Assembly (NCBI GenBank): GCA_028715115.1
Contig: JAQUSN010000001.1
Location: 3,314-67,313 of the forward strand
Length of the DNA stretch: 64,000 nucleotides
Direction of reading: 5' to 3'
Source: Patescibacteria group bacterium
GTDB lineage: Bacteria > Patescibacteriota > Patescibacteriia > UBA2591 > UBA4787
A program made the position numbers and the translations under genes. Shown in pieces: positions 2,643-45,059 of the stretch. Position 1 is the stretch's first letter. Each line of letters starts with the position of its first letter. Below the pieces are notes generated by a model. It was not told the DNA's origin, made no database searches, and saw only the letters and a program-made list of their open reading frames with translations.

Positions 2643-2689
2643 GCCAAAATTATTAAAAAATTTAGAGTGGAGCGAATAAATTTTTTGCC

Positions 2690-2850
2690 TGCCTGCCGGC
2701 AACTAAAATTTTGCCTGCCCGCCATAAGCCAGTCGAAATATTTTTGCCGTTTATTATTAGCAAGGTATGTCTAAATTTTATTTGCTATAACATCTGACAG
2801 GCGATGGCAGGCGGGTGCATCCCGTGAGTCCGACTATAGTCGGACTTTTA
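2690..2850 (-). promoter_or_regulatory. pheT leader containing a GC-rich inverted-repeat pair bracketing a 77-nt AT-rich segment, plus the 18-bp palindrome GTCCGACTATAGTCGGAC
   Basis: gcctgcccgccataagcc at 2713-2730 and ggcgatggcaggcggg at 2800-2815 can pair as a long-range stem with a 2-nt bulge. Palindrome at 2828-2845. Confidence 0.3.
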
Positions 2851-2921: not shown

Positions 2922-5348
2922 TCAACAATTATTATTATTATTGTGACTAGAATTAATATTGTTAACTGGTTTTTCTTTTTCGATTAACCTAACCCTCGCT
3001 TTAGCCACGTCTGACTTAGAAGGATCGTTAATTGAAGTGACCTGGATTGGGAATTCGTAAAATCTATTTTCTATAGCCTCTTCATTTTTGACGGAAATTT
3101 CTAATCTAACTTCTTTGGTTAAACCGCTGGCCAAGTTGCCGCTTTCCCAACCGGTTCCCAAAATTTGTGAAGTAATTTCATTTCCATCTTCTAGAATATT
3201 GAAAAATCTAATATTCCAATTTTTATCCGGATAAGCCTGAACTAAGAATTTATCCACGCCTCGCCCGTCGTTTTGAACTTTCAGGTGGAAAACCGCAGTT
3301 TGTTCAGCAGCAATTTCTTGTTCTTTGCTTTGACCTAGGCCATCTAAATTATAAATTGTATCTCCCAAGTATCGATCATCTGTTTCGTCGCCATTTTTAA
3401 TCTGCGCATCCGGTTGATAGGCTAGAATCTCTTGCTTGTAGAAAGCATCTTTCAGCTTCCAAATTAAAGCCACCAAGATGATAAAACCTATTAAGCCTAA
3501 AACCCAATATAAAACAATCAGCCACGCCGGCGTCTTTAATCCTAATAAAATATCTATTTTATTACCATCTTTACTTAAAGTAAAAATTGGAGACGCGTAT
3601 GGATTGAAATTCTCTTGATTAACTTTCAACCGATATGATCCGGCAGGTAGCATGAATTCATCATATACCCCGTTCTCGTCGGTTATGGTTGAAGCCATAA
3701 ATTGGCAACAGCCCTCGCCACATCGATATAAGTTAACCGTCACATTAGCCATAGGCTCATGATTTTTTTTCTTATAAACATGTCCGTATGGACTGACGAA
3801 AAATTGATTTTCCTGAAAAACCTTGCCATTGCCGATGGTTTGCAAATTATAACCACCAGGCTGAATTATCAAATCTTTATTGATTTGGAAAGTCAGCATG
3901 CCGTCTTTATTGGCCTGATAATTAAAAGGACTTTTATTGTCGGTGGCATTAATTAAATTAAAATTAATAGTTTGCTCTGGTAAAATAGTTCCAATAATGC
4001 TTTTCACCGGACCAGCAATAACAAAGTGGTCAGATTTTAATCCCGGCAAAATAAGTTTTGTATTTTCAACTATTGCTCCATCCCACAGCCCATCACCGTC
4101 AGTATCTTTTTCTTTAGGATTAGTCCCTAAAGTACACTCTTCCTTATTAATCACAAAGTCACCATCTAAGTCTAATTGAGCGTCACTTGGATCCTTTGGA
4201 TTAAGTCCATATTTAACCTCGCAAAGATCAGACATACCATCTTTGTCTAAGTCTGTATCAATATTTACTCTAACCTTAGCTGCATCTATCTTATTAACCG
4301 GATCATTGAGAGAATGGGTGGCAATACCAAATTCAGCGAAATCACCGGTCTGGACTGATTCGGGCACGCTAATTTCCATCTTAAATTCTAAGTTTTTATT
4401 GGGCTGTAAGCCGAATCGATAACCATTTAACATTTGCAGACTAATGTTGTCCCATTTATCACTATTTTTAACAAAATAACTAACCTGCCAATCCTTGGTT
4501 TCACTGCCCGCTTTAAGCACAAACGTATCAGCTTGGCTGCCGACATTAGTCACTCCCAGGTTAACGACCGCCGGATTAAAGGCGGCACTAGAAACTATGA
4601 TTTTAGATTGGATAACCACTGCGTCTGGTTTTTCATAAACTCCCAATCCGATATAATTTTGCTCGCCTGCTGTCTTAATTTCTAAATCAGGCTGTTGAGC
4701 AGTTGTCGGCGTAGTTGAACCGCCTCCACCGCCTTGGTTACCACCGCCAGGCTGACCCGGCTGACCAGGAGTAACACCACCGCCTTGGTTACCACCGCCG
4801 GCATTAGCACTATTGAAGCGTATGGTAATGACACCCCTAACTAAATCTTGATTACCGCTGGTAGCTGAACGAGCTCGAACGAAAAAGACGCTTTCCTGGC
4901 CGTAAAAAACATTTTCCGTCGGCGTCACATACATAAAAAATTCTTCCTGGCGATTATGCGGCAAAGAAGCCGTGCTCCAACCGCTTCCGGTGATGTTGCC
5001 GGTAATATCTCGGCCTGTAACGTCCTTATAAAGTATAGTCCAATAGCTATCAGTTGATGAACCAGTAATCACAAATTTATCTACTGGGTCACCGTCATTT
5101 TCTACTCTCAGACGATAACCAACCTGTTTATGCGCATCAATAATCTGATAAATAGTTTGATTAAAAGCAGTGTTGTTATAAATCCCACCGCCAGCATAAT
5201 TAGCCGTAGTGTCATAGCCGATCATTAAATCAGGCTGATAGTCCGGCGCCTGAGCTTTAACCACCGAAGAATCAAATGTTGGCAATAAAACAAAACTTAC
5301 TAAAATCAAACCGACTAAAAACATTTTTCTGATCGATGTTTTATTCAT
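2922..5348 (-). CDS. secreted/surface protein with signal peptide, Gly-rich low-complexity region, thrombospondin-type-3-like Ca-binding repeats, a CarbopepD_reg-like Cys-containing domain, a C-terminal TM helix and a poly-Asn tail
   Basis: 808-aa ORF. N-terminal hydrophobic signal. Repeated DxDxDG motifs (DTDLDKDGMSD, DLDGDFV, DTDGDGLWDG). TM segment AWLIVLYWVLGLIGFIILVALIW. Confidence 0.7.
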   Translation of the reverse strand: MNKTSIRKMFLVGLILVSFVLLPTFDSSVVKAQAPDYQPDLMIGYDTTANYAGGGIYNNTAFNQTIYQIIDAHKQVGYRLRVENDGDPVDKFVITGSSTDSYWTILYKDVTGRDITGNITGSGWSTASLPHNRQEEFFMYVTPTENVFYGQESVFFVRARSATSGNQDLVRGVITIRFNSANAGGGNQGGGVTPGQPGQPGGGNQGGGGGSTTPTTAQQPDLEIKTAGEQNYIGLGVYEKPDAVVIQSKIIVSSAAFNPAVVNLGVTNVGSQADTFVLKAGSETKDWQVSYFVKNSDKWDNISLQMLNGYRFGLQPNKNLEFKMEISVPESVQTGDFAEFGIATHSLNDPVNKIDAAKVRVNIDTDLDKDGMSDLCEVKYGLNPKDPSDAQLDLDGDFVINKEECTLGTNPKEKDTDGDGLWDGAIVENTKLILPGLKSDHFVIAGPVKSIIGTILPEQTINFNLINATDNKSPFNYQANKDGMLTFQINKDLIIQPGGYNLQTIGNGKVFQENQFFVSPYGHVYKKKNHEPMANVTVNLYRCGEGCCQFMASTITDENGVYDEFMLPAGSYRLKVNQENFNPYASPIFTLSKDGNKIDILLGLKTPAWLIVLYWVLGLIGFIILVALIWKLKDAFYKQEILAYQPDAQIKNGDETDDRYLGDTIYNLDGLGQSKEQEIAAEQTAVFHLKVQNDGRGVDKFLVQAYPDKNWNIRFFNILEDGNEITSQILGTGWESGNLASGLTKEVRLEISVKNEEAIENRFYEFPIQVTSINDPSKSDVAKARVRLIEKEKPVNNINSSHNNNNNC

Positions 5349-5375: not shown

Positions 5376-6431
5376 TTAAAATTGTCTTAAAAACCTTAAA
5401 TCACCGCCATTAAACCATCTAATGTCATCAACTTTATGACGCATCATCACCAACCGATCTAAACCGATGCCAAAAGCAAAACCAGTATATTGAGGCTGGA
5501 CCTGCCTGCCGGCAGGCAGGTAGCCAGCAGCACGCAAAACATTGGGATGAATCATGCCACAACCGAGCATTTCGACCCAACCGCTTTGACCGCAAACAGG
5601 ACAACCCTGGCCACCACATCTAAGACAAGAAAAATCTAATTCAAAACTTGGTTCAGTAAAAGGAAAATAGCTTGGTCTAAGCCTAACTTCGACGTCGCGA
5701 CCAAATAAATAATGCAAAAAAGTCTTTAAAGTATGAAGTAGGTTAGCTACGGAAACGTTTTTATCAACCACAAATCCTTCAATTTGGTATAAACTATGTT
5801 CGTGTCTAGCATCCGTCGCTTCGTGACGATAGCATTTGCCGATAACGCAAACCTTGAGTGGCGGTTTTTGTTTCTCCATTACCCTAACCTGCATCGCCGA
5901 AGTATGCGCCCTTAAAAGCAATCTGCCATTTTTTGATGGTTGATGATTGAGCCAAAATGTATCCCACATGTCGCGCGCCGGATGATTAGCGGGAATATTT
6001 AAAACATCAAAATGATAATGTTCGTTCTCGACCTCTGGCCCCTCTAGCACCTGCCAACCCATGGAGTGAAAAATGTCAGCTACTCGCATCTTCATTTGCG
6101 TGTGTGGGTGTAAATGACCGAGCTTAATCGTCTGATCAGTTAAATTTAAATTCAAGTCCGGCAAATCGTCGACTTGTCGAGAATCAGCCACTGATAAATC
6201 ATTTTTTCTATTATTTATAGTTGACTCTAAAATATTTTTTACCTCATTGATAAGTCGTCCCATTTCTGCCTTCTCTTGTGGAGTCATATCTTTTATCTTT
6301 ATGCTAAAATTCCGCAATTGCCCGTTGCGTCCTAAATATTTGCGCCACAATTCTTCTAATGAATTAAAGCCGCCCGCCGTTCTAATTTCTTGCAGCGCTG
6401 AATTTTTTAAATTTTCCAAAGACTCTTTCAT
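5376..6431 (-). CDS. pheS: phenylalanine--tRNA ligase alpha subunit
   Basis: 351 aa with class II aaRS motifs (FTEPSFELDF, GCGMIHPNVL, GFAFGIGLDR). Confidence 0.9.
   Translation of the reverse strand: MKESLENLKNSALQEIRTAGGFNSLEELWRKYLGRNGQLRNFSIKIKDMTPQEKAEMGRLINEVKNILESTINNRKNDLSVADSRQVDDLPDLNLNLTDQTIKLGHLHPHTQMKMRVADIFHSMGWQVLEGPEVENEHYHFDVLNIPANHPARDMWDTFWLNHQPSKNGRLLLRAHTSAMQVRVMEKQKPPLKVCVIGKCYRHEATDARHEHSLYQIEGFVVDKNVSVANLLHTLKTFLHYLFGRDVEVRLRPSYFPFTEPSFELDFSCLRCGGQGCPVCGQSGWVEMLGCGMIHPNVLRAAGYLPAGRQVQPQYTGFAFGIGLDRLVMMRHKVDDIRWFNGGDLRFLRQF
5502..5521. repeat. perfect 20-nt GC-rich palindrome CCTGCCTGCCGGCAGGCAGG inserted in frame in pheS
   Basis: Encodes the extra residues (LPAGRQ) relative to the conserved PheS C-terminal alignment. 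Same GCCTGCC/GGCAGGC core as the other GC mini-elements. Confidence 0.6.
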
Positions 6432-6929: not shown

Positions 6930-9900
6930 CTATATTTTACGGTACTCACAAATATCCTTAAAATCGCAATACTTGCAAAGCATACTCGGCTTGGCCGGAA
7001 AATTACTGTGATGAATTTCGTCAAAAATTTTGGCGATTTTTTGTTTCATATCATCCAGCTCGCCCTCCGTCCCTAAAAAAGACAACTGGGAATTATCTTC
7101 TAAAAAAATATAAGTTAATTTTTTAATTTCTTTTTTGAACAAACCGGCCGCGGCTAATTGATAAATCAGTAATTGCTCTTTATCTTCGGCTGATAATTTT
7201 CCGTCTTTAACGGTACCGGTTTTATAATCAATAATTTCTAAACCGTCTCCCAAATCGTCTACCCGGTCAATTTTTCCCTTAATCGTGCAGTCGCCGACCT
7301 TAAAATTAAAATCTAACTCCACATATTGAACGTCTGGTTTCGAGGTGCTGAATTCCTGATAAAATTTCTTTAAACTCTTCTCTCCCTTTTGCCGATATTC
7401 TTCCCGCAACTTATCGTCCGGATACCATTCATCAATCCAGCACTCATCATAAATCTTCATTATCAAATCCTGGTTTGGCACGACAGGCTCTTCCTTTTTC
7501 GGCGTTTCAAATAATTTGCTTTGTACGACTTTCTTCTGCAATAAAACTTGCGACAAAAACTTTTGGAGCGTTAGATGCATAGTCTGGCCAAAACTAAATA
7601 CATAACGGCCGCGAACTGGAATACGCAAAATAAAACCGAATTTATATTGCAACGGGCAATTTTCAAAAGCGCGCAGTTGGCTAAAACTAATTTTGGCCGG
7701 CAAATTAAATTGAGTGATTACTTTTTTTTCTTCCTCTTTAAAAATCGGCAATTTTAAGACTTTTGTTTTTTTACCTATAGCCTCTTCTTTTATTAAACCT
7801 AATTCATATAAAAATCTTGAGGCCTTTTTCTTGCGGGCGCCACCGTAATCATCGGCTAAAGTTAAAAATAAATTATCTTTGGCGCGAGTTAGTGCCACGT
7901 AAAATAATCGCCGTTCTTCTTGTAAATGAATATCGCCTTCGGGAATTATCTCGCGAGTCAAGGCATCGGGCAATTCAACGCCTTCTTTGCGCTCTGAAGT
8001 AGGAAAACGGCGATCAACTAAATTAACTAAAAAAACCGTTTTAAATTCCAGGCCTTTAGCGCCATGAACGGTCATAATTTTTACCGTCTCCGGACCAACT
8101 TCAATAATATCAGTCGGCAACGAGCCCTCATCGCCAGCTTCAATAATAATATCGATCGTCTCAATAAAATTCTTTAATGATTTATCGGTATTGGTTAATT
8201 CGAATTCTTCTATTTTTTTGAAAAATTGGCTAACCCAGGCAACATTCTCTATATTTTCTAGGCCGCCTTTTTCAGCCTGCCGGGAAATACTTTTCAAATA
8301 ACCAGAATCTTCCAAGAAAGAATAAACTATTTTACCCGCGCCCTGCTGTCTGGCCATCTGGCTATGTTTTTCAATCCAGCCCAAAAGCTGATCAATGGCC
8401 GACGCGCCATCTTTGGAAATTTCTTGCAAAGAATGAATTGTTTTTAGTGTTTGATAAAGAGATTTTCCTTTGCGGCGCGCCGCATTTATTATGTTGACTA
8501 AGTCTTCGTTAGTTATTTTTCCGCCCGAGGCGTGAACCCTAGGCTCATCAGCCTTGGGCTGAGATCGGCCTGCCTGTCCGCTAGGCAGGCCCTGGGCCGA
8601 AAAAATCGGCGACGTTAAAATCCGATAAAGCGCTGTGCTTTCGTGATAATTAACTAATAATTTTAAATAGGCCAAAATGTCTAAAATAATCGGCTTAGAA
8701 AATAATCCGCTGTGGGCTAAAAATTGATAAGGCACATTGCGCCAACGCAAAGCCTGGCAAAATATTTCCGCCTGATTATTAGCCCGCACTAAAATGGCAA
8801 AATCGTTCCAACTGGCTTCCGGGTTTTTTTCTTTCATCTCGATAATTTTATCGACTACGGCTTTGGCCTCTTCGTCTTGAGTGGCACTTTGCAGTAAATC
8901 AATGTTTGCGCCATTACCGCGCGTAGCTTCAAGTTTTTTGCAAATTACGTTTTTGGGCAAATCGCCCACTCCGTCAAGCTGAGAAACCTGCGCCTCCAGA
9001 CGATTGGGATTATTAAGCTGAATAAAACGATAGGCCATATCTAATATCTCTTGTCTGGAACGATAATTTTTCACCAAAACAACTTCTTTGGTTTTGGGGT
9101 AATCTCTTTTAAACTGAATAACATTGTTATATGAAGCGCCACGGAATTTATAAATACTCTGGTCATCATCGGCCACTACGGTTAAATTATTCTTTGGAGC
9201 GCCTAATAATTTTAATAATTCATATTGCGACCAATTAGTATCTTGAAATTCATCAACCAAAACATATTTAAACTGTTCCCTGTATTTAGCTAAAACGTTT
9301 GGCCGATCTTTGAAAAGCTTGATCGTATAATTAATCAAATCACCAAAATCAAGCGCCGAATTTTCTAATAATAGTTGCTGGTAAGTTTGATAAGCCTCGG
9401 CGATTTCTTTGAGCCGGCCGGCTTCCTGATCTAAAAGTTTATGGCTGGTTACCGTATCCTGATCTAGGGCAATTTTCTCCGCGTAATTTAAATATTCTTC
9501 GGGTGTAATAAATTCGTCTTTAGCCCGAGAAAAATGCTTGATCAAATCTTGAATGAATTTAAACGGCGTACCGAGCGGCCGATAATAGTTTAGATTAAAA
9601 CGGCTAAAATTCTGGCGGACCAAAAGAGCCTGTTGGGCAGAATTAATGATTTTAAAATTAAGCGGGAGTCCAATTTCAATGGCGTGCTGGCGTAAAATTC
9701 TTTCGCAAAAAGAATGAAAAGTCGAAGCCCAAAGGTCAACATAACCATAAGGTAATAATTTATCAATGCGCTCTTCCATTTCTTCGGCCGCCTTATCAGT
9801 AAAAGTCAAAGCTAAAATTTCTTCGGGTTTGGCCTTTCCGGACAAAATCAGCCAGGCGATGCGCCGGGTAATAACCGTGGTTTTGCCCGTACCCGCTCCG

Positions 9901-9992
9901 GCGATAATTAAAAATGGACCGTCGCCGTGAATGACCGCCTGTTGTTGCTCTTGGTTTAAATCGCTGGTTATTTCTTCTAAAATCATAAGCAT
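6930..9992 (-). CDS. UvrD/PcrA-family ATP-dependent DNA helicase fused to a C-terminal RecB/Cas4-like PD-(D/E)XK nuclease with a Cys cluster
   Basis: Walker A GAGTGKT. UvrD motifs (LVDEFQDTN, VGDDDQSIY-like, TVHGAKGLEF). C-terminal nuclease motifs (DRVDDLGDGLEIIDYKTG) and CKYCDFKDIC. Confidence 0.85.
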   Translation of the reverse strand: MLMILEEITSDLNQEQQQAVIHGDGPFLIIAGAGTGKTTVITRRIAWLILSGKAKPEEILALTFTDKAAEEMEERIDKLLPYGYVDLWASTFHSFCERILRQHAIEIGLPLNFKIINSAQQALLVRQNFSRFNLNYYRPLGTPFKFIQDLIKHFSRAKDEFITPEEYLNYAEKIALDQDTVTSHKLLDQEAGRLKEIAEAYQTYQQLLLENSALDFGDLINYTIKLFKDRPNVLAKYREQFKYVLVDEFQDTNWSQYELLKLLGAPKNNLTVVADDDQSIYKFRGASYNNVIQFKRDYPKTKEVVLVKNYRSRQEILDMAYRFIQLNNPNRLEAQVSQLDGVGDLPKNVICKKLEATRGNGANIDLLQSATQDEEAKAVVDKIIEMKEKNPEASWNDFAILVRANNQAEIFCQALRWRNVPYQFLAHSGLFSKPIILDILAYLKLLVNYHESTALYRILTSPIFSAQGLPSGQAGRSQPKADEPRVHASGGKITNEDLVNIINAARRKGKSLYQTLKTIHSLQEISKDGASAIDQLLGWIEKHSQMARQQGAGKIVYSFLEDSGYLKSISRQAEKGGLENIENVAWVSQFFKKIEEFELTNTDKSLKNFIETIDIIIEAGDEGSLPTDIIEVGPETVKIMTVHGAKGLEFKTVFLVNLVDRRFPTSERKEGVELPDALTREIIPEGDIHLQEERRLFYVALTRAKDNLFLTLADDYGGARKKKASRFLYELGLIKEEAIGKKTKVLKLPIFKEEEKKVITQFNLPAKISFSQLRAFENCPLQYKFGFILRIPVRGRYVFSFGQTMHLTLQKFLSQVLLQKKVVQSKLFETPKKEEPVVPNQDLIMKIYDECWIDEWYPDDKLREEYRQKGEKSLKKFYQEFSTSKPDVQYVELDFNFKVGDCTIKGKIDRVDDLGDGLEIIDYKTGTVKDGKLSAEDKEQLLIYQLAAAGLFKKEIKKLTYIFLEDNSQLSFLGTEGELDDMKQKIAKIFDEIHHSNFPAKPSMLCKYCDFKDICEYRKI
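8577..8601. repeat. GC-rich inverted repeat GGCCTGCC-N9-GGCAGGCC inside the helicase ORF, within a roughly 100-nt GC-rich in-frame insertion
   Basis: Encodes the low-complexity insert SGQAGRSQPKADEPRVHASGG. Sharp local GC rise at 8520-8625. Confidence 0.5.
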
Positions 9993-35276: not shown

Positions 35277-35332
35277 TGGAGCCGAGGGTGAGGATCGAAC
35301 TCACGACCTATGGTTTACGATACCGTTGCCCC
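35277..35332 (-). pseudogene. 3' remnant of a tRNA-Thr-like gene (D-stem 3' side through CCA, anticodon CGU)
   Basis: rc = GGGGCAACGGTATCGTAAACCATAGGTCGTGAGTTCGATCCTCACCCTCGGCTCCA. Its acceptor 3' strand CCTCGGC matches the isolated 5' fragment GCCGAGGTAGCTC at 35625-35637. Confidence 0.5.
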
Positions 35333-35347
35333 GCCTGCCATCGCCCT

Positions 35348-35420
35348 AGCCCGCGGTCGGAATCGAACCGACAACCTACGGTTTACGATACCGTTGCTCT
35401 ACCAGTTGAGCTACACGGGC
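35348..35420 (-). tRNA. tRNA-Thr (anticodon CGU)
   Basis: rc = GCCCGTGTAGCTCAACTGGTAGAGCAACGGTATCGTAAACCGTAGGTTGTCGGTTCGATTCCGACCGCGGGCT. 7-bp acceptor, loop ATCGTAA. Flanked by GGCGATGGCAGGCGGGG (35329-35346) and CCTGCCCGCCATAG (35426-35439). Confidence 0.85.
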
Positions 35421-35444
35421 TCAGGCTATGGCGGGCAGGTCTAC

Positions 35445-35528: not shown

Positions 35529-35624
35529 AAAAGTGGCGGGGCAAGGCTGCCCCGACGTTTTAGTCGGTCCGATGACTCCGACGAGTATCGGACTCCGTCG
35601 GAGGACTCCGACTGTAACGTCGGA

Positions 35625-35637
35625 GAGCTACCTCGGC
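35625..35637 (-). pseudogene. isolated tRNA 5' fragment GCCGAGGTAGCTC (identical to nt 1-13 of tRNA-Thr(UGU) at 40605-40617, plus 2 nt of its upstream flank)
   Basis: rc of gagctacctcggc. Followed on the minus strand by hairpin-rich sequence homologous to 40690-40760. Confidence 0.5.
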
Positions 35638-35820
35638 ATTAACACTCAGTCAGCCTATTAATATAATACACTAGGCTGAAAATTTTTCAATTGGAGCGGG
35701 TAACGGCCTGCCTGCCCTGACTGCCGTCAGGCGGGCGGTAGGCAGGGAATTGAATCTTTACTTGGGAAGTCCTAAAAGTTTTTGCAATCCGCCAAATTGC
35801 GGAGAAGTAGTGAATTTTTG

Positions 35821-40639: not shown

Positions 40640-40760
40640 GACGGGCAGAGCCACTACCGCCCAGTTTTAAGAAAAACTGGAATAGGCTGTTGTCCCGACG
40701 TTTCAGTAGAAAAGTCGGGTCTCCGACCGAAAGCGTCGGAGAGCTAGGGCGGCATGCTCG
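40640..40760. repeat. copy B of the tRNA-associated repeat: hairpin CCAGTTTTAAGAAAAACTGG, hairpin-rich CCCGACG/GTCGGAG segment, and a tRNA-like 5' fragment GCCGCCCTAGCTC
   Basis: Homologous to 35483-35637 (shared CCCGACGTTT, GTCGGAGAGCTA, GGCAT). Degenerate CCTGCCCG-CCGCC motif directly upstream of the tRNA. Confidence 0.55.
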
Positions 40761-44799: not shown

Positions 44800-44915
44800 C
44801 AAGGGAGCGACCTGCCCGCCTATTGCCTATCCAAGAGTTAATCTAAACAAGAATTAAAGAAACAATATTCTTTCTAGGTTTTAACTCCATGGGACGGCGT
44901 TGGCAGGCGGGGCGA
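44800..44915 (-). promoter_or_regulatory. glyQS leader carrying the same GC-rich inverted-repeat pair as the pheT leader (CCTGCCCGCC-TAT ... GGCG-TT-GGCAGGCGGGG) around a 75-nt AT-rich segment. Upstream -10 TATAAT abuts the palindrome GGATGTTATACATCC.
   Basis: Arms at 44808-44820 and 44896-44912. Palindromes at 44973-44987 and CCGCCAGCCGGCGG at 44945-44958. Confidence 0.3.
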
Positions 44916-45059
44916 TAAAGAAAAATTAATTTTTCTTTTCCGATCCGCCAGCCGGCGGAGTTGGCAACAATAGGATGTTATACATCCTATTATAATATAA
45001 ATAATAAAAAAGAAAAGCCAAAAACCTGGCTTAAAAGCGGTAAAGTATTGAGTTGGTTT

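Follow-up and report, generated by a model that had tools for sequence, protein, structure and literature searches.

How did a perfect GC-rich palindrome come to lie within the coding sequence of pheS, the gene for the alpha subunit of phenylalanine--tRNA ligase, with the reading frame kept? The question is raised by a stretch of 64,000 nucleotides from a Patescibacteria group bacterium (positions 3,314 to 67,313 of contig JAQUSN010000001.1, assembly GCA_028715115.1), which we will call the window. The palindrome, CCTGCCTGCCGGCAGGCAGG or PAL, is 20 nt long, and an exact string search places it at 5501-5520 of the window. A first-pass annotation, made from the letters alone, had described a perfect 20-nt GC palindrome inside pheS, and this is correct except that its coordinates (5502-5521) are one base too high. 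Together with the A and the T that flank it, PAL forms a perfect palindrome of 22 nt (5500-5521). Its two arms are CCTGCCTGCC and GGCAGGCAGG. Since the window has a GC content of 39.5%, PAL is a sharp GC island. PAL was found in none of 100 dinucleotide-preserving shuffles of the window, and its 10-nt arm, with up to one mismatch, occurs 15 times in the window (1.6 expected). As RNA, PAL is predicted to fold into a 9-bp stem with a CCGG loop and a GCUGG/CCAGC extension (-24.9 kcal/mol, z = -2.4).

The host gene (5376-6431, minus strand) encodes a PheS of 351 amino acids, with domains PF01409 and PF02912, that is 100% identical to a protein from a Patescibacteria metagenome-assembled genome (MAG) at NCBI. 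At the site, the coding strand is GGC TAC CTG CCT GCC GGC AGG CAG GTC CAG CCT CAA TAT ACT GGT. Its translation is G Y L P A G R Q V Q P Q Y T G, and the predicted peptide across the insertion is AGYLPAGRQVQPQYTGF. The minus-strand reading of the palindrome thus encodes LPAGRQ, as had been claimed, and both the reading frame and the conserved motifs, including the catalytic ones, are intact in the 351-residue protein. The added loop directly precedes class-II motif 3. The spacing from HPxV to GFAFG is 18 amino acids in the window's PheS and in no other, and it is 12 in 109 of the 112 homologues in which these landmarks could be found, so the claim of six extra residues relative to the canonical spacing holds.

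All 28 of the aligned homologues lack the six residues: they have a loop of four residues (PKGK, STGK, QTGK, etc.) where the window's protein has LPAGRQVQPQ. The same 6-residue gap appears against solved PheS chains (P. aeruginosa 4p71, S. haemolyticus 2rhq, E. coli 3pco, and others). (The PheS of T. thermophilus exceeds that of E. coli in this C-terminal stretch, with 65 versus 56 aligned residues.) In an AlphaFold2 model with a predicted local distance difference test (pLDDT) score of 71, residues 302-315 form a coil that links a short helix to the motif-3 strand.

The comparison with close relatives leads to the same result. The closest PheS relative by protein alignment (P0002) is 78% identical. 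Syntenic relatives share the gene order helicase, 129-amino-acid membrane protein, pheS, and large surface protein; at the site, one of them (71% identity) has GGC TAT TCG ACG GGT AAA TAT and another (68% identity) has GGT TAT CCC AAA GGT AAA TAT, with no trace of the palindrome in either. Relatives at 68-78% identity all lack the insert, and none of the homologues examined encodes the same six residues with non-palindromic DNA. Three other assemblies, of which two are NCBI MAGs and one is from Logan, contain the same pheS DNA without mismatches; the sequence is thus not spurious, and this population is fixed for it. An in-frame insertion into pheS is therefore supported against every relative examined.

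We also note that five other Patescibacteria PheS proteins (P0005, P0006, P0012, P0068, and P0069) have a different in-frame, repeat-like insertion, RINADxxADQRGxISxNxRxSA (alignment columns ~225-265). It occupies another loop, between the DTFY/W and LLLRTHTS motifs. With this second type of insertion, PheS in Patescibacteria is a recurrent landing site for small elements.

Where else are these 20 letters found? We scanned one genome per species for the two PAL arms separated by 0-30 nt and obtained at least 120 loci. (Labels such as L001 refer to loci that were retrieved in our genome, viral, and metagenome scans.) Among the matches listed, the gap was exactly 0 at about 100 of about 125 sites, and the hosts of the 20-mer within Patescibacteria were Parcubacteria, Saccharibacteria, WWE3, Doudna-, Davies-, Uhr-, and Wolfebacteria. 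If one mismatch per arm was allowed, then 164 sites had a gap of 0, and no other gap was found at more than 13. The 20-mer is also in Bacteroidota isolates (Winogradskyella echinorum, Flagellimonas yonaguniensis, Longitalea luteola, and Flavivirga), in Omnitrophota and Planctomycetota, and in uncultured gamma- and delta-proteobacteria. The flanks of PAL are unrelated between loci. Most of the host loci are 35-50% GC, and the chance expectation for the 20-mer is far below one in the whole collection.

Viral sequences gave a similar picture. IMG/VR contains 45 exact PAL sites in 35 stretches, and several viral contigs have multiple copies (L146, L153, L154, and L132); to judge by size and layout, the unannotated ORFs of these contigs may include phage structural genes. 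Two control palindromes, one with the arms swapped and one composition-matched and based on CCGT, had no matches in IMG/VR. To measure how uniform the copies are, we left pairs of positions free: for positions 7/14 there were 45 exact copies versus 10 for the other 15 base combinations, and for positions 3/18 there were 45 versus 4. This homogeneity points to recent or ongoing spread from a constrained master sequence rather than to mere selection for any hairpin. The copies across genomes support the suggestion that the pheS palindrome belongs to a dispersed palindromic repeat family that inserts into other open reading frames (ORFs) as well.

Among the variants of PAL, the asymmetric CCTGCCTACCGGCAGGCAGG (or CCTGCCTGCCGGTAGGCAGG, if the other strand is read) is the commonest, with nine copies in the 0.8 Mb of clamp loci that are described below (L222, L227, L234, L248, L263, and others). 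Because this variant has a G·T pair on one strand only, it hints at a single-stranded hairpin of defined polarity. At the end of one viral contig (L159, 3926-4142), there is a tandem array of at least ten units with a 21-nt period, and the unit is the PAL variant CCTGCCTGCCGGTAGGCATGG.

Three loci show what an insertion looks like next to its empty site. In L105, L010, and L037, the 20-mer is in the duplicated 5' part of a tRNA gene, and the adjacent intact tRNA gene represents the empty site; the two differ by exactly +20 nt, and the insertion has not duplicated its target. PAL also inserts into its own kind: it lies near the centre of another PAL in L025 and L052 and inside an older, decayed copy in L028, and a PAL variant lies inside a clamp arm in L248. 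A word of at least 7 nt is shared by both sides at 17% of PAL sites versus 5% of controls, and insertion into short tandem arrays is typical of the Bacteroidota sites. Abutting direct repeats were absent at 59 of 101 PAL sites. We rejected a target-site duplication of fixed length, as the repeats of 7-14 nt at a few sites reflect insertion into tandem arrays and the sites with empty copies show none.

The preference for a target sequence is slight. On either strand, position -1 is A in 41% of PAL half-sites versus 25%, and T in 9%; the pheS copy fits, as it is A|PAL|T. A fuller target motif, ANA|/|TNT, was discarded because its enrichment is weak (20% versus 14%) and only the A at -1 is clear. 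The tip of a pre-existing hairpin was also discarded as the target: flanking stems of at least 5 bp were found at 6% of sites versus 2.4% of controls, and these were mostly nested PALs.

tRNA genes are another recurrent setting. Twelve of 146 PAL sites are within 300 nt of a predicted tRNA, and more are in tRNA fragments. The recurrent sites are on the 3' side of the D-loop/D-stem, at GA|GC (L022 and L046) or TA|GAGC (L107 and L157). Other copies in tRNA genes are in L123 and L269, and L283 has a copy in the T-loop. In the viral contigs L150 (2239-2330) and L127, PAL is in the variable loop of a phage tRNA-Met, and the 92-nt product passes in ARAGORN as a tRNA whose variable arm is long; this PAL-bearing tRNA may still be functional.

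We think that PAL is very probably a 20-bp palindromic mobile repeat, and that copy-and-paste spreads it both inside genomes and from one genome to another, in bacteria and phages.

PAL is also found in other coding sequences. It has no stop codon in any frame. As 20 is not a multiple of 3, copies that survive within an ORF need a fix of ±1/2 nt. In convincing long ORFs, PAL is nearly always read as x-LPAGRQ-x: this peptide is in a Saccharibacterium FtsK, in RmlB (in a nested 42-nt insert), in the ribosomal protein S6 of a Daviesbacterium, in a ScpB-like protein, in several membrane proteins, and in a Bacteroidota protein of 1120 amino acids. In alignments to PDB structures, the in-ORF copies fall in variable regions.

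The window has a second case two genes from pheS, in a gene for a UvrD-like helicase (6930-9992, minus strand). This gene contains a 75-nt (25-amino-acid) in-frame GC-rich insertion, AQGLPSGQAGRSQPKADEPRVHASG (8523-8597, minus strand), which is absent from a 73%-identical orthologue in L001. The insertion holds further hairpins and a 21-nt PAL derivative (8569-8589, minus strand; coding strand CCTGCCTAGCGGACAGGCAGG, read as LPSGQAG). L136 has this +1 "GGA" variant too; in both L136 and the helicase, this "+A" derivative, GCCGGACAGGCAGG, is read as AGQAG or SGQAG. As a separate observation, a Thermodesulfobacteriota MAG (L074, 3861-4160) has PAL followed by an in-frame GIY-YIG domain, and both are inserted in the central conserved region of an HsdS-like ORF (the specificity subunit of type I restriction-modification).

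How, then, was the frame of pheS kept? The net gain in pheS is 18 nt and the inserted unit is 20 nt everywhere else, which implies a compensating loss of 2 nt. If the 20-mer is deleted in silico, then the coding strand reads GGC TAT CCA GCC TCA A TAT: the usual Tyr codon is back and the frame is 2 nt short. After this Tyr comes Pro, in agreement with the AGY-P consensus of the family. Between the palindrome and the conserved TAT ACT GGT are 10 nt (5490-5499, minus strand; coding strand CCAGCCTCAA) that are now read as (V)QPQ. To judge from these letters, this stretch would be a remnant of the ancestral loop that is read out of its old frame and that has undergone the compensating 2-nt deletion.

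The path that we favor, and consider somewhat probable, is a 20-nt insertion at TA|T plus a 2-nt deletion. The 20 bp would have entered between the second and third bases of the Tyr codon that precedes the 4-residue loop just upstream of motif 3. The ancestral loop may have been something like TAT CCA GCC GGT CAA TAT (Y-PAGQ-Y), which has the pattern x-x-G-K/Q. A deletion of 2 nt within the next 10 nt (5490-5499) would then have restored the frame, for a net change of +18 nt and +6 amino acids, so that the loop would now be LPAGRQVQPQ instead of something like PAGQ, with the remnant read as V-Q-P. Presumably the enzyme tolerates the longer loop, and the insertion would have been fixed in the population as a neutral or nearly neutral passenger. 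We consider an insertion of 18 nt after TAC into a loop of VQPQ less probable, because such an ancestral loop would be unlike that of any homologue and an insert of this length is never seen elsewhere.

Several points weigh against this account of a mobile 20-mer in pheS. The nearest relative with DNA is only 71% identical, and there is no near-identical allele of pheS with an empty site. The proposed gain of 20 nt and loss of 2 is read from one restored codon and one consensus-matching Pro. The structural model of PheS is of only moderate quality (pLDDT 71). No transposase, RAYT, or other enzyme is linked to PAL; there is only a statistical proximity to small GIY-YIG genes, which we discuss next. 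The 64-kb window holds one exact PAL and about four variants, and this does not give a copy number per genome. Finally, the identity across phyla could partly reflect the design of an exact-match search, but the paired-free scans argue otherwise.

What might move such a short sequence? We propose that a trans-acting, sequence-specific enzyme recognises the PAL hairpin or palindrome. Sequence-specific recognition would account for the constancy of the 20 letters from phylum to phylum. HUH/Y1 enzymes (IS200/IS605, RAYT) move hairpin-ended DNA without target duplications. We did not see any HUH/Y1 or RAYT gene beside PAL, where the neighbouring ORFs, which are unannotated, were only glanced over (they looked like a mixture of housekeeping genes) and no aimed search was made. 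The association that we did see is with stand-alone GIY-YIG ORFs (PF01541, ~80 amino acids): five of the nine in the fetched loci are within 170 nt of PAL versus about 0.4 expected. Two loci, L046 (WWE3, tRNA-Lys) and L157 (viral contig, tRNA-Asn), have the same arrangement, with a tRNA 5' fragment that has PAL in its D-arm, a GIY-YIG gene 18-19 nt further on, and an intact tRNA. (We also observed that in L097 a GIY-YIG gene abuts tRNA-Met.)

This association suggests another explanation for PAL, which is that a nuclease, such as a GIY-YIG enzyme, makes double-strand breaks, and that PAL is deposited there as a filler or repair scar that is copied from another PAL. In that case the nuclease would have cut pheS off target at TGGCTA|T, a sequence similar to TGGTA|G and TGGATA|G in tRNA D-loops, and the pheS copy would be the trace of this cut. 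Besides the excess of GIY-YIG ORFs near PAL and the shared architecture of L046 and L157, this would fit the lack of target-site duplications and the adjustments of ±1-2 nt beside in-ORF copies. The window itself has a similar locus on the minus strand (41358-40932): a 5' fragment of tRNA-Thr(GGT) (41358-41340), a 65-nt two-hairpin insert in its D-loop (41339-41275), a stand-alone GIY-YIG gene (41256-40960, PF01541), and an intact tRNA-Thr(GGT) (41004-40932). However, the D-arm insert beside the window's own GIY-YIG gene is not PAL. Because this locus carries a different hairpin, the association of PAL with GIY-YIG genes may only reflect a common preference for the neighbourhood of tRNA genes, or a shared liking for tRNA-gene "junkyards." Furthermore, most PAL sites have no GIY-YIG gene nearby, and a repair scar is not expected to keep 20 letters invariant. 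We consider the break-filling explanation unlikely, and we prefer copy-and-paste of a mobile 20-mer.

Could the insertion have been kept because it is useful? The hairpin in the mRNA might pause or regulate the translation or processing of pheS, or the LPAGRQ loop might give a new interaction. The stability of the hairpin (given above), the fixation of the insertion across four assemblies, and the recurrence of the LPAGRQ frame in other proteins could each be taken this way. But purifying selection against Cys-containing frames is a simple explanation for the recurring frame, no relative of the window's PheS has the loop, and these 20 nt are distributed as a passenger would be, in unrelated proteins and tandem repeats as well as in intergenic DNA and dead tRNA fragments. 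A benefit to the host therefore seems very unlikely to us: the pheS copy is most simply a tolerated passenger, and nothing indicates a function.

PAL has larger relatives, the GC-clamps, which bear on its origin. A clamp has 16-nt arms with a fixed C/T asymmetry around a cargo of 70-90 nt. The window contains three. One (2714-2815, plus strand; arms CCTGCCCGCCATAAGCC / GGCGATGGCAGGCGGG) has a non-tRNA cargo with no Rfam match, and 13 nt upstream of it is a truncated PAL consisting of the first 14 nt, CCTGCCTGCCGGCA (2688-2701, plus strand). Another (44811-44911, plus strand) has a non-tRNA cargo that is homologous to that of the metagenome locus L176, with no credible Rfam match. The third (35330-35439, minus strand) carries an intact tRNA-Thr(CGT) (35347-35421) and lies inside an older tRNA-Thr(CGT), which it interrupts at GTAGA|GC of the D-stem; the 3' part of the broken gene is at 35329-35280. 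The three share arms of the form CCTGCCCGCC-AT.GCC … GGCG(A/T)T-GGCAGGCGGG. In the same part of the window as the third clamp there is a composite PAL-like hairpin, CCTGCCTGCC ... GGTAGGCAGG (35704-35747), with a second hairpin nested inside.

We scanned metagenomes for clamps, with 26 specified bases and a gap of 70-100 nt, and obtained at least 120 loci (L175-L294). The counts that follow are among the matches listed. Clamps are ~100-121 nt in total, most often 109. A complete tRNA (Arg, Thr, Val, Cys, Pro, Leu, or Ala) is inside 48 of 125 clamps. For 25 of these 48, deletion of the element reconstitutes a complete outer tRNA across the junction; the outer anticodon is the same as the inner one in 20 of the 25, and the junction is at tRNA position 20-25 or 33-37 in 23. 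The inner and outer tRNAs are typically ~65-80% identical (up to ~90% in three cases), and an identity of only ~65-80% implies that the inner tRNA is foreign rather than a local duplicate. In its behaviour the clamp resembles a cassette by which a foreign tRNA is put into the cognate tRNA gene of the host, and it looks like a self-rescuing cassette for replacing tRNA genes. We did not find any literature on tRNA-carrying clamp cassettes.

The two non-tRNA cargos in the window are AT-rich and ~70-80 nt long, and each type has homologues in metagenomes. The first type is in L177, L178, L184, and related loci, with conserved flanks ..TTCCTA|..|TCTCTAACGGGA. These cargos may be small RNAs outside known families, or they may be decayed.

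Is PAL, then, a zero-cargo version of the clamp, as the first-pass annotation proposed? Part of this stands. The arms of PAL and of the clamps are identical at nine of ten positions on each side, with one base different per arm. Both have an A on the 5' side: at least 88 of the 125 left flanks of clamps (among the matches listed) end in A, and the CTA of the pheS site ranks third in frequency among these left flanks. Both target tRNA positions 20-25 in the D-arm. (For PAL this holds for other copies; the pheS copy itself is outside any tRNA.) They also occupy the same contigs, as the 0.8 Mb of clamp loci include 17 copies of PAL or of PAL-like sequences with up to two mismatches. What does not stand is derivation from the larger element, because PAL is an independent, homogeneous, cargo-free 20-mer that lacks the 6-nt extensions of the clamp arms (AT.GCC / GGCGWT).

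More specifically, a full cargo-bearing clamp might have entered pheS and later lost its interior, so that the arms abut. Clamps whose arms are 9/10 identical to PAL's are present in the same window, and clamp hairpins with short cargos are known (L181 and L201). But the pheS arms are those of the pan-phylum PAL (T at positions 7 and 14) and not this genome's clamp arms (CCTGCCCGCC / GGCAGGCGGG), and the extended arms (ATAGCC / GGCGAT) are missing from the pheS copy. The bare 20-mer is also the commonest state, as the 164 sites with no gap compare with at most 13 for any other gap, and the deletion route requires that an insertion of ~105 nt in an essential gene was tolerated first. We regard this route as highly improbable. 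We conclude that PAL is a related, minimal member of the clamp family (a sister), and not a clamp that lost its cargo in pheS.

Two explanations that do not involve a mobile element fare worse. The palindrome could have arisen locally, by a template switch or by the correction of a quasi-palindrome, with the likeness to other sequences being a coincidence. The flanks GCTGG..CCAGC do form a short inverted repeat that may have been there before, and a 5-bp stem like this is found at 2.4% of control positions. However, relatives lack a half-palindrome at the site that could serve as a template, and the same 20-mer, with unrelated flanks, is at 120 or more genome loci and 45 viral sites, versus none for the control palindromes; the matches across genomes and the zero-match controls rule out a local origin, to which we give almost no weight. 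As for an artefact of sequencing or assembly (for instance a chimeric junction or an adapter), a palindrome this perfect and GC-rich does look artificial in a genome of 39.5% GC, and palindromic junction adapters exist in some library types, but the probability is negligible and the idea is ruled out, given the same DNA in three other independently produced assemblies, the 20-mer in isolate genomes (Winogradskyella, Flagellimonas, Longitalea, and Flavivirga), the contiguous pheS sequence on both flanks with the frame kept, and the existence of decayed, nested, and +1-nt in-frame derivatives.

With PAL as a mobile 20-mer and the clamps as its relatives, we tentatively suggest that the two form a single undescribed class of mobile elements, which would be shared horizontally by Patescibacteria, Bacteroidota, Omnitrophota, Planctomycetota, and phages. 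One enzyme, possibly a GIY-YIG protein, would recognise A|CCTGCC(Y)GCC...GGC(R)GGCAGG. The 20-bp form would be the smallest known autonomous unit of transposition, and the form with cargo would be a self-rescuing drive that replaces tRNA genes. This is a possibility that we would bet against as a whole.

How does PAL compare with known repeats? Its closest analogues are the Rickettsia palindromic elements (RPEs) and the cyanobacterial small dispersed repeats (SDRs), and PAL is in neither family. The SDR1-8 repeats, which are reportedly confined to one cyanobacterial subgroup (heterocystous cyanobacteria), are said to be 21-27 nt long, hairpin-forming, nested, and found in tandem heptamers. Going by that description, both SDRs and PAL are dispersed hairpins of ~20-27 nt that are nested in themselves and embedded in tandem repeats, and neither has an associated protein. 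In contrast to the SDRs, PAL is a perfect palindrome, crosses phyla, is found in essential ORFs and tRNA genes, and has cargo-bearing relatives. There are no cyanobacteria among the titled genome matches to the 20-mer, and PAL is set apart from SDR1-8 by description. The GC clusters of yeast mitochondria are short GC-rich hairpin elements as well. Sponge mitochondria have repetitive hairpin-forming elements (RHEs; PMC2800124). Like PAL, GC clusters and RHEs are short GC-rich hairpins that have repeatedly invaded compact AT-rich genomes, mostly between genes and sometimes within them; unlike PAL, which is bacterial or phage-borne and invariant, they are organellar, family-specific, and usually at least 30-60 nt.

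The first-pass annotation had compared the pheS insertion to RPEs and to Correia or REP repeats. The behaviour is similar, in that a palindromic repeat lies in frame within ORFs, while membership fails on size, flanks, and taxon. As summarized in PMC10969869, RPEs are ~100-150 bp, are limited to Rickettsia, and encode a peptide of ~30-50 amino acids per family (Ogata et al. 2000, 2002). The likeness, as far as that summary describes RPEs, is that both are palindromic repeats that lie in frame in unrelated housekeeping ORFs, with the peptide at tolerated positions (PMC10969869), and that no transposase is known for either. By the same account, PAL shares in-frame insertion into ORFs with the RPEs and does not share their length, their peptide size, or their restriction to Rickettsia: it is 20 bp and six amino acids, it is present letter for letter in at least six phyla and in phage contigs, and it needs an adjustment of ±1/2 nt to keep the frame.

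REP sequences and REPINs are extragenic, genome-specific, and imperfect, with a 5' GTAG and an associated RAYT gene (PMC3116915). PAL resembles them as a short (20-40 nt) GC-rich palindrome of similar size that makes no target duplication and that could plausibly be spread by a trans-acting enzyme that acts on hairpins. PAL differs in that it is identical across phyla and lacks the GTAG flank (its flank logo shows only the A at -1). As to location, the pheS copy is intragenic, and there are one exact copy and about four variants in 64 kb. PAL also lacks the features of MITEs and Correia elements (terminal inverted repeats, target-site duplications, a length of 100-400 bp, and derivation from insertion sequences), as it is 20 bp and has no target-site duplication at the three sites with empty copies. 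We did not find the 20-mer, its 14-15-mers, or the peptides LPAGRQ, PACRQAG, and CLPAGR in the literature, for which our coverage was incomplete, so an earlier description is possible; searching by concept yielded analogues only.

Three properties of PAL are unusual: its minimal size, its invariance across phyla and phages, and its kinship to tRNA-carrying cassettes. It appears to rank among the smallest mobile DNA elements observed to date, and if it is mobile as a 20-bp unit, then the known lower size limit for a transposable sequence drops. If one short sequence is indeed unchanged across distant phyla, this implies that the machinery that recognises it is conserved and shared horizontally. 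By way of its kinship, PAL connects to a larger phenomenon, in which clamp cassettes place a foreign tRNA inside the cognate tRNA gene of the host. The PheS case would be a concrete and datable example of an essential enzyme that absorbed selfish DNA, with a frameshifting insertion and a 2-nt rescue deletion. For annotation, PAL explains recurrent LPAGRQ or SGQAG peptides in uncultivated bacteria as well as odd tRNA calls that have a long variable arm or that are "broken."

The window also contains other small repeats. A second family, with two hairpins, has the form CCTATTCCAGTTTTT…AAAACTGGACGGCCCGTTCGAGCTTA..TAATAAGCTCGAA.TAGGG and is present on the minus strand at 41339-41275 (the insert beside the GIY-YIG gene) and 35509-35444, with a partial copy at ~40690-40650. 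Both of the full copies lie between the GG and the TA of a tRNA D-loop, in orphan 5' fragments of tRNAs. Another family of GC hairpins has the form (T)CCGCC-loop-GGCGG(A), for example TCCGCCAGCTGGCGGA; it is found at 44940-44961 of the window and in L018, L023, L081, L199, L206, and L270. In several phyla, these CCGCC/GGCGG hairpins lie close to PAL and clamp sites and also within dead outer tRNAs. Lastly, hairpins of the form (A)GTCCGAC-loop-GTCGGAC(T) lie beside clamps and tRNA fragments at ~2827-2846, 35560-35625, and 40700-40745.

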